Shown piece after piece: positions 34,187-43,179 of a stretch of 43,179 nt of DNA. The position numbers and the translations under genes are program-made. Under the pieces are notes generated by a model. It did not search any database and was not told the origin of the DNA. It was given only the letters and a program-made list of their open reading frames with translations. The DNA lies in the NCBI GenBank assembly GCA_963648915.1, contig CAVJGY010000001.1, forward strand, positions 1 through 43,179. Direction: 5' to 3'. This stretch comes from Acutalibacteraceae bacterium (GTDB lineage Bacteria > Bacillota > Clostridia > Oscillospirales > Ruminococcaceae). Positions within the stretch are counted from its first letter, which is position 1; every line of letters begins with the position of its first letter.

Positions 34187-34771
34187 ATGGAATGGAGTAT
34201 CTTATTTTTCGTCAACAGTGCATTGCTGGGCGTCGGTCTGGCAATGGACGCGTTTTCCGTCTCGATGGCAAACGGCCTGCATGAGCCGAACATGTCCAAG
34301 AGCAAGGGCGCAAAGATCGCCGGCACGTTCGGCGTGTTTCAGGCTGTCATGCCGATGACGGGCTGGATCTGCGTCCACACCATCGTCGAGCTGTTCTCGT
34401 CCTTTGAAAAGTTCATCCCGTGGATCGCACTCATCCTGCTGGCCTACATCGGCGGCAAGATGCTCATCGAGGGCATCAAGGGCGAGGAGGCTGAGGAGGC
34501 CGACGAGCTGAGCGCGGGCGCACTCTTCGTACAGGGCGTGGCGACCAGCATCGATGCACTGTCGGTCGGTTTCACCATCTCGGAGTATGGCTGGCTGATG
34601 GCTCTGGTCTGCTCCCTCATCATCGCGACCGTCACCTTCTTCATCTGTGAGGCAGGTCTGTCCATCGGCAAGAAGTTCGGCACGAAGCTCTCCGGCAAGG
34701 CATCCATCCTCGGCGGTGTCATCCTTATCGGCATCGGCCTCGAAATTTTCATCACCGGTATTATGGGCTGA
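34187..34771 (+). CDS. mntP: Manganese efflux pump MntP
   Basis: GLAMDAFSVS, FGVFQAVMP..GW, ATSIDALSVG, GGVILIGIG. AGGAGG RBS. Confidence 0.93.
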   Translation: MEWSILFFVNSALLGVGLAMDAFSVSMANGLHEPNMSKSKGAKIAGTFGVFQAVMPMTGWICVHTIVELFSSFEKFIPWIALILLAYIGGKMLIEGIKGEEAEEADELSAGALFVQGVATSIDALSVGFTISEYGWLMALVCSLIIATVTFFICEAGLSIGKKFGTKLSGKASILGGVILIGIGLEIFITGIMG

Positions 34772-40100: not shown

Positions 40101-40685
40101 GCTTCCGGCGAGGATGTCAACGTCATGGTCTTCGATACTGAGATGTACTCCAACACCGGTGGACAGGCATCCAAGGCTTCCAACATTGGTGAAGTCTGCC
40201 AGTTCGCTGCTGCTGGTAAGGAGATCAGCAAGAAGAGCCTGTCCGAGATCGCAATGACCTACGGCTACATCTATGTTGCTCAGATCGCTCTGGGCGCAAA
40301 CATGAACCAGGCTGTCAAGGCAATTGCTGAGGCTGAGGCTTATCCCGGCCCGTCTCTGATCATTGGTTACGCACCCTGCGAGCTGCACGGCGTCAAGGGC
40401 GGCATGACCAACTGCCAGAACGAGATGAAGAAGGCTGTCGAGGCTGGTTACTGGAACCTGTTCACCTTCAACCCGGCAAACAAGGCTCAGGGCAAGAACC
40501 CGTTCACCCTGACCTCCAAGGCTGTGGACAACGAGAAGTATCAGGCATTGCTGGCAAACGAGACCCGTTACAGCCGTCTGACTCGTGCATTCCCCGAGCG
40601 TGCAAAGACCCTGTTCGAGCGCAACCAGAAGGTTGCAAACGACCGTTACGAGCACCTGTCTCGTCTGGTCGAGCTGTACAAGTAA
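37134..40685 (+). CDS. nifJ: Pyruvate:ferredoxin (flavodoxin) oxidoreductase
   Basis: YPITPSS, FTASQGLLLM, two CxxCxxCxxxC motifs, EFSGSCAGC, GGDGWAYDIG, YSNTGGQ. Codon bias typical of a highly expressed gene. Confidence 0.97.
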   Translation: MPIVRAKQTMDGNTAAAHVAYAYTDVAAIYPITPSSPMADSVDQWSAAGQKNIFGNQVKVVEMESEAGAAGAVHGSLGAGAVTTTFTASQGLLLMIPNMYKIAAEQLPCVFDVSARTVATQSLNIFGDHSDVMACRQTGFAMLAESSVQEVMDLSPVAHLCAIEGKVPFLNFFDGFRTSHEYQKIEKWDYADLKEMCNMEAIEEFRKKALNPEHPKMRGSHENGDVFFQHREACNSVYDALPAVVEKYMAKINEKLGTNYDLFNYYGAPDADRVIVAMGSICDVADEVIDYLNAKGEKVGIIKVRLYRPWVSASLLKVLPKTAKKVAVLDRTKEPGSLGEPLYLDVATTLREAGLNDIVLTGGRYGLGSKDTPPSSIFALYKELEKDQPKERFTLGITDDVTFLSLPEVKPAPITAAAGTKECKFWGLGGDGTVGANKNSVKIIGDHTDKYVQAYFQYDSKKTGGVTISHLRFGDKPIRSPYYINQADFVACHNPAYIHMGMKMVQDVKPGGVFMINCQWTDEELDEHLNAADKKYIADNNIQLYTINAIDKAIEIGMGKRTNTILQSAFFKLADVMPIEDAVNFMKQAAQKSYGKKGQDVVEMNWKAIDAGVDAIHKVDVPASWSNPEADPAPKELSGRPELVKQIRDVMEPIARMDGDSLPVSSFTANANGEWEQGASAYEKRGTAVNVPEWDASKCVGCNQCAFVCSHATIRPFQLTADELAAAPAQTKSRDNRPANEYKFVMAVSPLDCMGCGECVTVCPTKAIAMVPQDSQADQQEVFDYCVANISKKPSKFADDTVIGSQFNQPLLEFSGSCAGCAETSYARLITQLFGEKMYISNATGCSSIWGGTASISPYTVNKDSGHGPAWCNSLFEDNAEHGLGLYLGQKTVRENLIKEIAEVAESDKASAELKAAFEKFMETKNNTKANDEPAKALIAELEKAAAAGCEKSAEILKSKEFIAKKSVWIFGGDGWAYDIGFGGLDHVLASGEDVNVMVFDTEMYSNTGGQASKASNIGEVCQFAAAGKEISKKSLSEIAMTYGYIYVAQIALGANMNQAVKAIAEAEAYPGPSLIIGYAPCELHGVKGGMTNCQNEMKKAVEAGYWNLFTFNPANKAQGKNPFTLTSKAVDNEKYQALLANETRYSRLTRAFPERAKTLFERNQKVANDRYEHLSRLVELYK

Positions 40686-40704
40686 TCTTTCCCTCTGAAT
40701 CAAC

Positions 40705-41106
40705 GCGGACATTTTCCGCAGCGGCACCGAGTCCGAAAGGCAGCTGCTCCGTACTGGCGATTACTGCGTAACGCAGCAGTGCGAAACTGTGGAGCGTCCA
40801 AGGCGAAACAGAACAAGATTCCCGTACAAACCGAACGGTTCTGCGCAAACGCGCAACAAGTGATTTCATTTCCCTGCTCTGTCCCTGTTCGCGACAGCGC
40901 AGAGCGGGGTTCATTGAAATACCAAAGCACCCGTGAGGGTCCTTGAGAGCACATCTCGCGTGTGTCAGAAGCATAAGGTCTGCTTGCAGATACCTTGCTC
41001 CGCCTGAGGCATAAGACCTGCTTTGCAGGGATCTTGTCCCAGTGAAAAACAGAATCCTGTTTTTGCCGCCCCATCCACTGGCAACAGTGCTTGGGGCGGT
41101 TTTTTT
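40705..41106 (+). ncRNA. Unidentified highly structured ~400-nt element (nifJ 3' trailer, ncRNA or composite repeat)
   Basis: More than 8 hairpins, GNRA loops, G-U pairs favouring the plus strand, long-range pairing 40813-40823/41028-41037, and a terminator at the end. Confidence 0.45.
41066..41106 (+). terminator. Intrinsic terminator closing the nifJ transcript
   Basis: CCGCCCCA-tc-CACTG-gcaa-CAGTG-ct-TGGGGCGG-TTTTTTT. Confidence 0.8.
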
Positions 41107-41152
41107 GCATGAAAAGGCCGAAATATAAAATTTCACTTTTTCCAAAAGTCCT

Positions 41153-41206
41153 TTTACAGTTTCTTCATAGCTTCTTCATGAAATCAAATGTGAAAGCTGT
41201 TATACT
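41153..41206 (+). promoter_or_regulatory. Activator-type promoter: three 11-bp-period direct repeats plus extended -10
   Basis: TTTACAgtttc/TTCATAgcttc/TTCATGaaatc at 41153, 41164 and 41175, then TGtTATACT at 41198-41206. No canonical -35. Confidence 0.55.
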
Positions 41207-41212
41207 TCTGTC

Positions 41213-41332
41213 ATAAGGAATCGGGGCCGCAACCGATCCCTTGTACATGATTCCTCCTCACACCAAGGCAATATCCAAACAGAACGCCCTTTCCGGTAAG
41301 CCGCAAGACCGGAGAGGGCGTTCTGCGTTTTT
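41213..41332 (+). ncRNA. Putative ~120-nt trans-acting sRNA with anti-AUG/anti-SD seed
   Basis: 5' hairpin (AAGG-A-ATCGG...CCGAT-C-CCTT), single-stranded ACATGATTCCTCCTCA, and an 18-bp terminator stem at 41280-41325 followed by CGTTTTT. Has its own promoter. Confidence 0.6.
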
Positions 41333-41354
41333 CTGGGAAAAACACTCTTTGGGC

Positions 41355-41383
41355 TTGACCCCTGTTTTTCACGGCGATATAAT
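41355..41383 (+). promoter_or_regulatory. sigmaA promoter of mgtE
   Basis: TTGACC-17 bp-TATAAT. Confidence 0.8.
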
Positions 41384-41389
41384 AAAACA

Positions 41390-41621
41390 GAACTAAGATT
41401 TTTAGGAGGTGAACGCAGGACAATGGACCCGGATCATAGTCGAAGACGATGGAATGATGCGGCAGACCGGACGACAAAAACGGCTGCGTTCGCCTTTTTT
41501 GCGCGCTGAAAAGCAGACAACGTAAAAAGGGCGTGTCTTTGCGCGTAAAGATTCGCGCTGCGGTACAGGATTTTTGAATTGCGGCTTGCTGTATCCTCCC
41601 ATGGAAAAGGAGGAGCAACAA
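41390..41621 (+). promoter_or_regulatory. Structured ~230-nt mgtE leader with alternative helices and a candidate uORF (41423-41509)
   Basis: Mutually exclusive helices 41407-41418/41484-41495 and 41491-41503/41521-41533, and an anti-SD TCCTCC at 41594-41599 next to the mgtE RBS. Confidence 0.55.
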
Positions 41622-43179
41622 ATGAACGAAGAAAAGAAGCTGGCAGCAATGCCGGAAAACGAAGCGGCACTCCCGGTGCAGGAATTGCCGGACGATATCC
41701 CCGACGAGGTGCGCCAGAAATTGGCCGAGGACCTGAACGAGGAGGCGACCGAGGACCTGAAGCAGGACATCCGGGAGGCCGAAGCCGAGGAAGCCAACGA
41801 TGAAGAGGTCAAGGCCGACCCGGAGATGCTGACAAAGAGCCGCCTGCTCAAGCTGCTGGTGAAAAAGCAGTACGTCAAGCTGCGCGAGGTCACCGAGGAA
41901 GAGCAGCCCGCCGACCTTGCCGAGCTGCTGGAAGAACTGGACGAGAACAATCGTCTGGTCGTGTTTCGTCTACTGAAAAAGGACGTTGCAACAGAAGCTT
42001 TCGCCTATATGTCGGACGAGGCCCGCGACGATTTGGTGAACGCCTTCTCGGATGTCGAGCTTGTCAGTGCCATCGAGGAGATGAGTCTTGACGATGCTGC
42101 CGACCTGCTGGAAGATATGCCTGCGGGCGTTGTGAAGCGCGTTTTGGAGAAGTCCTCCCGCCAGACCCGTGAGAGTCTGAACAAGCTGCTGAACTACCCC
42201 GAAAGCTCGGCCGGCAGCCTGATGACCCCCGAATACGTCCGCCTGCGCAAGGACATGAAGGTCAGCGATGCGTTCGCGGCCATCCGGACGCAGGGCGAGA
42301 ACGCCGAGACGGTCTACACCTGCTATGTGGTCGAGCGAAACCGTCTGCTGGGTGTTGTGTCGGCAAGAAATCTGCTGCTGGCAGAGCCGAACGCACCCAT
42401 CACCGATATCATGGACGACAATGTTGTCACCGTGAAGGTCACGGACGATCAGGAATATGTCGCCCGTGAGATGCAGCGTTACGACTTCACCGCGATGCCG
42501 GTCGTCGACAACGAGGGCATGTTCGTCGGTATCATCACCATCGACGATGCAATCGACGTCCTGACCGACGAGTCCACCGAGGATATGCAGAAGATGGCGG
42601 CTATCTTGCCTGCTGACGAAGCGACCACCTATTTCGGCACGAGCGTCTGGACACACGCCAAGCAGCGTATCCCTTGGCTTCTGATTTTGATGCTGTCGGC
42701 GACCTTCACCGGCATGGTGACGACCCACTATGAAGAGGCCTTCGTCAGCCTGCCCCTGCTGGTTTCCTTCATGCCCATGCTGATGGATACCGCGGGCAAC
42801 TGCGGCAACCAGATCAGTACCCTGATGGTTCGCGGTCTTGCTCTGGGCGAGGTCGAGCCTTCCGACTTCCTGCGCGTCCTCGGCAAGGAACTGCGCGTTT
42901 CCTGCATCGTCGGCGCGGTGCTGGGCATCGTCAACGGCCTGCGCATCTACCTGATGTACACCTTCATCTATGCAGGTCAGTATGAGAATGTCCTCGGCTA
43001 TGCCCTCGTCGTCAGCGTGTCGCTCTTCCTCAGCGTTATTCTGGCAAAGCTGGTCGGCGGTATGCTCCCCTTGGCCGCGAAGAAGCTGGGCGCAGACCCC
43101 GCGATCATGGCGACGCCCTTCATCACTACCATCGTCGATGCGTGCAGCTTGATTTTGTATTTCCAGATCGCGATGATGG
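41622..43179 (+). CDS. mgtE: Magnesium transporter MgtE (runs off the window end)
   Basis: Read by hand, since it is absent from the ORF track (no stop codon). AAGGAGG RBS, MNEEKK.., QPADLAELLEEL, LLNYPESSAGSLMTPEY, a CBS pair, RIPWLLILM, DTAGNCGNQ, DPAIMATPFITTIVD. Confidence 0.93.
   Translation, partial: MNEEKKLAAMPENEAALPVQELPDDIPDEVRQKLAEDLNEEATEDLKQDIREAEAEEANDEEVKADPEMLTKSRLLKLLVKKQYVKLREVTEEEQPADLAELLEELDENNRLVVFRLLKKDVATEAFAYMSDEARDDLVNAFSDVELVSAIEEMSLDDAADLLEDMPAGVVKRVLEKSSRQTRESLNKLLNYPESSAGSLMTPEYVRLRKDMKVSDAFAAIRTQGENAETVYTCYVVERNRLLGVVSARNLLLAEPNAPITDIMDDNVVTVKVTDDQEYVAREMQRYDFTAMPVVDNEGMFVGIITIDDAIDVLTDESTEDMQKMAAILPADEATTYFGTSVWTHAKQRIPWLLILMLSATFTGMVTTHYEEAFVSLPLLVSFMPMLMDTAGNCGNQISTLMVRGLALGEVEPSDFLRVLGKELRVSCIVGAVLGIVNGLRIYLMYTFIYAGQYENVLGYALVVSVSLFLSVILAKLVGGMLPLAAKKLGADPAIMATPFITTIVDACSLILYFQIAMM

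Follow-up and report, generated by a model that had tools for sequence, protein, structure and literature searches.

In Gram-positive bacteria the control of Mg2+ supply is generally attributed to the M-box riboswitch, and the coupling between transcription and translation is considered loose; ribosome-sensed leader peptides have been described for enterobacteria. How, then, might a clostridial mgtE gene be controlled when no M-box precedes it? The question is raised by the last gene of the window, by which we mean the whole 43,179-nt stretch of DNA analyzed here. An earlier note on this DNA had proposed that a leader peptide resembling enterobacterial MgtL, together with a set of switchable helices, stands before mgtE instead of an M-box.

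The mgtE locus and its leader

The gene (41622-43179, + strand; truncated by the window end) has every feature expected of an MgtE channel: Pfam recognizes the MgtE_N domain, two CBS domains and the MgtE membrane domain, and the pore aspartate, which we take to be the Mg2+-binding D432, is present. The product matches the solved channel (PDB 2yvx) at E = 5e-81 with this aspartate kept, and an orthologue within the same genus, 92% identical, is a named Faecalibacterium protein. Upstream of mgtE lie a pyruvate:ferredoxin oxidoreductase gene, assigned by Pfam, and a separate small non-coding unit.

The Rfam comparison that the earlier note had called for places no known metal riboswitch in the leader. 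No family reached its gathering score there, and a scan at E ≤10 returned nine weak matches, none to a metal riboswitch; in the window as a whole the only Rfam matches are two tRNAs. The M-box model (RF00380, at least 44 bits) found nothing in the leader, in agreement with the earlier note, and nothing in the source genome, which is 62% complete; one of five genus genomes has a match, which lies before an MgtA-like ATPase (genome G088). The model of the mgtA leader that carries MgtL (RF01056, at least 40 bits) had no match in the leader or in any of five genomes, with 150 candidates scored per genome and a positive E. coli control.

The leader is preceded by a predicted sigma-70-type promoter (TTGACC-17-TATAAT; 41355-41383, + strand; -35 at 41355-41360, -10 at 41378-41383), whose 11 of 12 consensus bases bear out its earlier description as near-consensus. 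RNA data from four runs yielded only short contigs of relatives; these reach over promoter DNA as well and were set aside. An ORF of 28 codons lies at 41423-41509 (+), exactly where it had been placed before. Ahead of it, region 1 (41404-41418) combines the Shine-Dalgarno (SD) sequence of the ORF (41404-41412) with the 5' arm of a helix, A. Codons 1-7 (41423-41443), which specify Met-Asp-Pro-Asp-His-Ser-Arg and include the rare codons AGU and CGA, are the proposed sensor, a role suggested by residue conservation. The Arg codons that had been called uncommon are so, CGA and AGA accounting for 4.9% and 2.7%, respectively, of the Arg codons in this genome's long ORFs. Two reservations made at the time also hold, in that the ORF has a single Pro codon and the gap from GGAGG to the start codon is 13 nt, against 7-9 elsewhere; the long gap counts against the model we favor below.

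Helix A (41407-41418/41484-41495; 15 bp and 41404-41498 when G-U pairs are included) covers the SD of the ORF, as proposed. Its 3' arm shares region 2 (41484-41503, ORF codons 21-27) with the 5' arm of helix B, whose 3' arm lies in region 3 (41521-41537), and this common region makes the 13-bp helix B exclusive with helix A, again as proposed. The anti-SD UCCUCC (41594-41599) had been expected to pair with the mgtE ribosome binding site (RBS); its partner in the predicted OFF hairpin (41594-41614) is the mgtE SD at 41609-41614. Three elements were absent from the earlier note. Helix E, the proposed ON helix, joins ORF codons 12-15 (41456-41465) to 41586-41595, overlapping the first two anti-SD bases. 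Helix C (41497-41506/41541-41550) is a prediction, and would accompany helix A in the OFF fold of the window's clade. The third is a terminator present in relatives, the 3' arm and U-run of which correspond to 41563-41575; here this site has decayed and its pairing with region 3 is lost. A terminator scan of 40650-41700 found none. The leader as a whole folds with a z score of -3.27, equaled by 1 of 200 shuffles, and two or more helices of at least 12 bp occurred in 1.7% of 300 shuffles (one such helix in 13.7%).

Several other features of the window were recorded. Past the oxidoreductase gene, 420 nt (40690-41110) contain several inverted repeats and no long + strand ORF. The small non-coding unit at 41164-41335 (+), ~120 nt long and free of ORFs, is served by a promoter of its own (-10 at 41201-41206). 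Two CTTCAT direct repeats lie upstream, and the unit also has a 5' hairpin, an exposed stretch (UCCUCC) resembling an anti-SD, and an 18-bp terminator that covaries across 16 genus loci. Its promoter part has more copies in the genus, an Rfam scan of the unit gave no match, and it looks like a two-component-regulated small RNA. Farther away, positions 34202-34771 (+) hold a manganese efflux gene of the MntP family; the yybP-ykoY riboswitch had no Rfam match above its gathering score anywhere in the window.

Conservation of the ORF and its helices within the genus

An alignment of mgtE leaders, which the earlier note had recommended, reveals a conserved start block of the ORF and covariation in helices A and B. 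We collected 54 distinct leaders from the genus, from sources that include the 30 best of the listed places and 20 hand-picked divergent loci; the genomes are related, so that the counts are not independent. Three of the 20 divergent regions (L077, L079, L080) were missing the conserved block. All 54 leaders have a promoter-like pattern upstream and an identical distance from SD to start codon, and the MDPDHS block is conserved throughout (Asp2 in 54, Pro3 in 53, Asp4 in 53, His5 in 52 and Ser6 in 53, with some synonymous changes). The earlier note had worried that the likeness to MgtL might be coincidental; chance is an unlikely explanation. The likeness itself stands in part: the acidic N-terminus, with Asp2 and Asp4 flanking Pro3, is borne out, and the Arg cluster is not, the RRR triplet being specific to one clade (12 of 54 leaders). 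An Arg-sensing attenuator, with the cluster as its sensor, was rejected for this reason. CGA occurs within codons 3-12 in 43 of the 54 ORFs, and CGA, AGA or AGG in 51.

Conservation extends beyond the encoded residues. Synonymous differences number 11 of 159 in ORF codons 2-6 against 585 of 1417 in mgtE, a sixfold excess of conservation which implies that codon identity or the RNA sequence is under selection too and counts against a purely peptide-based reading, and the stretch 41404-41443 is nearly invariant within the genus, third codon positions included. Toward the 3' end, in contrast, the frame is dispensable: the helix-A arm is out of frame in 5 of 53 leaders and the in-frame leaders fall into two length classes only, which makes frame conservation up to the end of the ORF weak evidence of coding. 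In 9 of 9 regions a leader ORF starting MEPAGS precedes the genus's second mgtE paralogue; a third, distant MgtE-like paralogue has a clear ORF of this kind in one of five regions, and in the source genome its short leader has none. One leader, L012 (G024:C171), is deleted from codon 7 of the ORF to the mgtE SD, at a short repeat; either the switch has been lost naturally or the assembly is wrong here.

For the helices we aligned 33 of the 54 leaders and compared pairing with shuffles and with helices slid out of register, controls that are uncorrected for relatedness; the structures had been drawn from the same sequences. Helix A is 97.5% paired, with two-sided changes at 4 of 12 pairs. The earlier note had drawn attention to a U-run after it (41495-41500), and in other leaders of the genus this stretch does not remain a run of U, so that helix A is no conserved terminator; a terminator made of helix A and this U-run was accordingly rejected. 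Stem T, formed in relatives by region 3 and a GC arm ahead of a U-tract, shows 77% pairing, and two-sided changes affect 5 of its 8 pairs. For helix B taken together with its extension the pairing is 86% and 6 of 12 pairs carry such changes; its cell count and score, but not its number of changed pairs, exceed the shuffles. The anti-SD hairpin is 85% paired, some rows being one column off. Helix E, which surfaced when the mgtE RBS was forced open in the window's predicted fold, has the strongest covariation of the leader's helices: it is 82% paired, with 45 cells carrying two-sided changes against 16.9 in shuffles, and its covariation score is 0.454 where slid controls reach 0.13 at most. As with helix B, the number of pairs changed, here 6 of 10, does not exceed that in shuffles. 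Tested against shuffled partners, it was better at p ≤0.05 in 42 of 50 leaders (L069 and L073 left out). Helices A and B share region 2, and B and T share region 3, which together describe an attenuator of the 1:2/2:3/3:4 type.

The lineages differ in how much of this device they keep. A terminator-like stem and U-tract are found in 43 of 52 leaders and are absent from L001 and L032-L036. In the window's clade (L001, L032-L034) the T arm has been lost, and with the terminator decayed mgtE would there probably be controlled at translation only. In L035 and L036 regions 3 and 4 are deleted, leaving a minimal leader of 161 nt composed of A, a stronger E and the anti-SD, which points to A versus E as the switch in its smallest form. 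As predicted RNA elements, then, the comparison shows a conserved short ORF, a helix A between its SD and its 3' end, alternative helices B and E, an anti-SD hairpin and, in most relatives, an intrinsic-terminator-like stem; the ORF is probably translated.

The leader ORF beyond the genus and its link to Mg2+ genes

Outside the genus the exact MDPDH pattern disappears (0 of 298 family genomes from other genera). In other genera, 27 mgtE leaders had ORFs with an SD, a start codon and Asp, of which 22 agreed with a rule (SD, NTG start, Asp at codon 2) that was fixed before being applied to held-out loci. The rule was passed by 41 of 60 held-out mgtE loci of the family (60 of about 120 further listed places), against 4.9 +/- 2.2 in shuffles, an eightfold enrichment; CTG starts gave 0 of 60, the reverse strand none, and the genome's genes in general 97 of 1164 (8.3%). 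Across the class, 36 of 69 mgtE loci passed, from 26 families as counted by hand (29 loci taken automatically and 40 hand-picked for family spread out of 150 listed places), with two passes each for CTG and the reverse strand. The family ORFs start with ATG, GTG or TTG in 24, 15 and 2 cases, and codon 2 is GAC or GAT in 32 and 9 family loci and in 22 and 15 class loci. Among the 52 held-out loci without Asp2, 11 have Glu2; ten of these resemble true homologues and one (L198) does not.

The 99 ORFs found outside the genus have further properties in common. A length of 20-36 codons is seen in 88 (other frames: 26 and 13), and 70 have an in-frame CGA, its position varying between 5 and 18 (other frames: 16 and 23). 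The first such CGA clusters either at codons 5-8 (37 ORFs) or at codons 11-14 (27); a single paused ribosome, or others queuing behind it, may account for the two groups. In the wider family residues 3-6 are small, their mean volume being 103 where controls give 135-150. Of the 99 ORFs, 25 have a second acidic residue in codons 3-6 and 39 have Pro in codons 3-8 (60 are without), which counts against the model we favor, and only Asp or Glu at position 2 is general. E-like pairing was enriched here too, reaching p ≤0.05 in 38 of 86 leaders; pairing of the SD arm was weak, ranking in the top tenth in 23 of 85, which is a further point against that model. By eye, seven mgtE leaders (L104, L113, L158, L174, L201, L230, L240) have related short ORFs whose first acidic residue stands at position 3 or later or is absent and which the Asp2 rule therefore passes over, and two Selenomonadaceae loci (L298, L330) carry the motif outside Clostridia. 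Some clostridial variants come close to MgtL itself, among them MDPEPLSG (L242) and MEPGPLP (L227).

To ask what the motif precedes, we scanned a GTDB genome set for its commonest variant without regard to neighboring genes. Among 80 loci, out of at least 120, the motif lies before mgtE in 49 and before mgtA in 14 (63 of 80). Among the remaining 17 loci, three belong to CNNM proteins whose own sequence starts with the motif and 14 resemble chance matches, bringing Mg2+ importers and CNNM proteins together to 66 of 80. When mgtA leaders were taken as the starting point, 6 of 17 passed the rule.

The relation to the M-box is not one of simple replacement. In 156 mgtE leaders outside the genus, scored with our own HMM built on seven Rfam matches, 88 have the ORF only, 11 have both, 11 have the M-box only and 46 have neither, so that the ORF is present in 99 and the M-box in 22. 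Rfam confirmed all 11 tandem cases, and the statement that the ORF stands "instead of" an M-box consequently fails as a general rule. In C. difficile, an mgtA gene is preceded by an M-box and then a 34-codon ORF of the same kind (L288:905-1320).

CNNM proteins have Asp2 in 17 of 36 cases, against 26 of 825 genes of the source genome and 16 of 156 MgtE proteins; this sample comprised the 30 best of 120 class matches and 6 from five genomes, with start codons assigned automatically, two of which look wrong. CNNM/CorB-type proteins (L411, L381-L416, L274, L295, L310) have Asp2 followed by small residues, often after a TTG or GTG start, and the source genome's own CNNM (L411, G000:C111, about 4260) begins MDDGS.

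A proposed ribosome-operated switch and its alternatives

We propose, with a probability of roughly 60%, that the leader is a ribosome-operated Mg2+ attenuator in which early abort of translation at low Mg2+ turns mgtE on. At low Mg2+ the ribosome would stall or fall apart at codons 2-4, destabilized by the acidic, small-residue N-terminus. Repeated loading would cover the SD arm and codons 12-28 would remain bare; B could then take the terminator arm and E pull the anti-SD away, so that with both formed mgtE would be ON. At high Mg2+ ribosomes would read through, melt E and B and leave, upon which A, the terminator and the anti-SD hairpin would form and mgtE would be OFF. The rare AGU and CGA codons would probably slow early elongation and so tune drop-off, which is the least certain step. 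This MgtL-like model accommodates the DPD start seen in the window, the wider family's small residues at positions 3-6 and the requirement that the SD arm be covered. The earlier note had offered either a ribosome-sensed attenuator or a new metal-sensing RNA; the analysis bears out the conserved MgtL-like ORF, the switchable helices and the true mgtE, and the metal-sensing RNA is the weaker choice.

The direction of the switch was modeled by blocking 31-33 bases for a ribosome in equilibrium predictions, with L010 (cut) and L012 (deleted) excluded. In the 43 of 52 leaders that have T, covering the start lowered median T pairing from 0.85 to 0.52, whereas with codon 7, codon 14 or the stop codon covered it stayed at 0.83-0.85. 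Placing a ribosome at the start made the mgtE RBS cheaper to open by at least 1 kcal/mol in 36 of 52 leaders, and placing it at codon 3 did so in 33; for codon 7 the number was 10 and for the stop codon 18. Occupancy of the start or codon 3 is thus predicted to weaken T and ease opening of the RBS, which makes an early stall or abort the ON state. For the window itself the modeled direction is ambiguous: opening costs 11.0 kcal/mol in the free leader, 6.0 with the start covered, 8.9 with codon 7 covered and 5.2 with the stop covered, so that occupancy of the stop opens the RBS as easily as that of the start. The SD accessibility predicted for the window was 0.0 in all six states, which counts against the proposal.

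The main rival keeps the attenuator and moves its sensor. The pause would come from slow decoding of wobble-read codons (CGA by tRNA-Arg ICG, AGU by tRNA-Ser GCU), its length would track Mg2+-dependent decoding or tRNA supply, and Asp2 would be secondary. The excess of in-frame CGA outside the genus speaks for this, as do the over-conserved third positions, codon usage (CGA is 59% of Arg codons in the leader ORFs versus 4% in mgtE, and AGT 62% of Ser codons versus 9%) and the tRNA genes of five complete genus genomes, none of which has the tRNA-Arg(UCG) pattern and all of which have ACG. An early CGA is missing, however, from 29 of 99 ORFs outside the genus and 11 of 54 within it, placing the modeled ribosome at codon 7 disrupts neither helix A nor the terminator and rarely eases RBS opening, and Asp/Glu2 and the CNNM N-termini are left unexplained. 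We regard this reading as unlikely, if worth keeping in view.

It is rather improbable that the leader is a real leader-peptide attenuator read by some other cue that stabilizes ribosomes (K+, polyamines, pH, bL31 or ABC-F proteins), with Mg2+ as one input. Such a second input could explain why the ORF follows an M-box in the tandem leaders, and EttA and bL31 modulate MgtL and MgtQ according to PMC11282234 and PMC8092293, but the motif leads almost solely to Mg2+ importers and CNNM proteins. A metal-binding riboswitch whose 5' block merely resembles an SD and an ORF would account for the near-invariance of 41404-41443, and folding alone is reported to modulate mgtA termination (PMC11552253). 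What Clostridia keep, however, is the SD, the start-codon class, Asp or Glu, the in-frame CGA and the ORF length and not the nucleotide block, the exact MDPDH pattern being absent from 298 genomes of other genera, and Rfam gave no match; we consider a riboswitch very unlikely. A chance ORF with chance helices in an unregulated leader is largely refuted and deserves hardly any credence, since the frequency of single 12-bp helices in shuffles, the background rate of the rule among the genome's genes and the loss of most of the leader in L012 are outweighed by covariation in A, B, T and E, the eightfold enrichment and the specificity of the motif-first scan.

The proposed attenuator has its closest parallel in the MgtL/mgtA leader of E. 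coli and Salmonella. There, according to PMC11282234, low Mg2+ makes translation abort on EPDP, the stalled ribosome has Pro3 in its P site, and changing Glu2 and Asp4 abolishes control; PMC11552253 describes a stem A that hides the SD of the ORF in the OFF fold. Common to both are a short SD-bearing ORF before a Mg2+ importer gene, acidic residues 2 and 4 around Pro3 (EPDP there, DPD here) and mutually exclusive helices over the ORF, one of which hides its SD. The leader studied here differs in having 28 codons, no match to RF01056 and one Pro in place of several conserved Pro codons, and in its predicted output, an intrinsic-terminator-like stem plus an anti-SD where MgtL uses Rho. The likeness spans 4-7 residues, with no match of RNA models. 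In most clostridial members a single acidic residue precedes Ala, Gly or Ser, and a CGA is conserved; MgtL and MgtQ, in contrast, need two acidic residues.

MgtQ, in the mgtC-mgtB spacer of Salmonella, relies on Asp2 and Glu5 for making the mgtB RBS accessible (PMC8092293). That paper describes Asp2-dependent destabilization which drives a switch, 1:2/3:4 versus 2:3, and so releases the transporter RBS, as proposed here. MgtQ, in contrast, has 8 codons, is intercistronic and contains region 1 within its ORF, whereas here region 1 is the ORF's own SD and a long-range helix E joins the middle of the ORF to the flank of the anti-SD. The enterobacterial corL/corA leader, which we compared by description only, resembles ours in that the SD of its ORF lies in a stem A and poor elongation or a non-start codon raises the transporter (PMC11552253), and differs in being Rho-dependent and lying before corA. 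The M-box has the same target genes and stands in tandem upstream of the ORF in other Clostridia; in M. tuberculosis, PMC12810186 describes a leader ORF behind an M-box, with the riboswitch controlling the ORF.

For the CNNM proteins the nearest parallel is E. coli ybeX (corC), a putative Mg2+ efflux protein that likewise starts with Asp and small residues. The preprint 10.1101/2021.02.02.429294 proposes that this N-terminus permits synthesis only at high Mg2+ and reports that small residues favor ribosome destabilization in E. coli; ybeX differs in that the protein's own N-terminus is involved, with no RNA switch. The Thioalkalivibrio mgtE motif known as SRC-65-1, another orphan structured RNA before mgtE, is reported in that genus only (PMC11109978; compared by description). 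A search of the full-text literature, mostly outside subscription papers, found no such leader described for Clostridia; the available portions of the C. difficile transcriptome (10.1101/2020.08.10.244764; supplements of PMC8237595) have no entry for it and those of PMC2965389 and PMC4072509 do not mention it.

The same device, apparently undescribed, is common across Clostridia. It outnumbers the M-box before the sampled clostridial mgtE genes, has no Rfam entry, and is present in both Faecalibacterium and C. difficile. Nature has, moreover, provided a series of leaders with one or two acidic residues and with or without Pro, terminator and M-box, which makes the dispute over sensing by MgtL (prolines, acidic residues or RNA folding) directly testable. 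Tentatively, and as a possibility we hold with much less confidence than the attenuator itself, Asp after the start codon, small residues and wobble-read AGU and CGA may form a clostridial Mg2+ gauge that works both ways: in a leader ORF it would turn on the importers mgtE and mgtA when translation aborts, and at a protein's own N-terminus it would let CNNM exporters be made only on read-through. If this is true, a single acidic residue would suffice, and such sensing would work in Gram-positive bacteria and would outrank the M-box as the principal Mg2+ sensor of the class.
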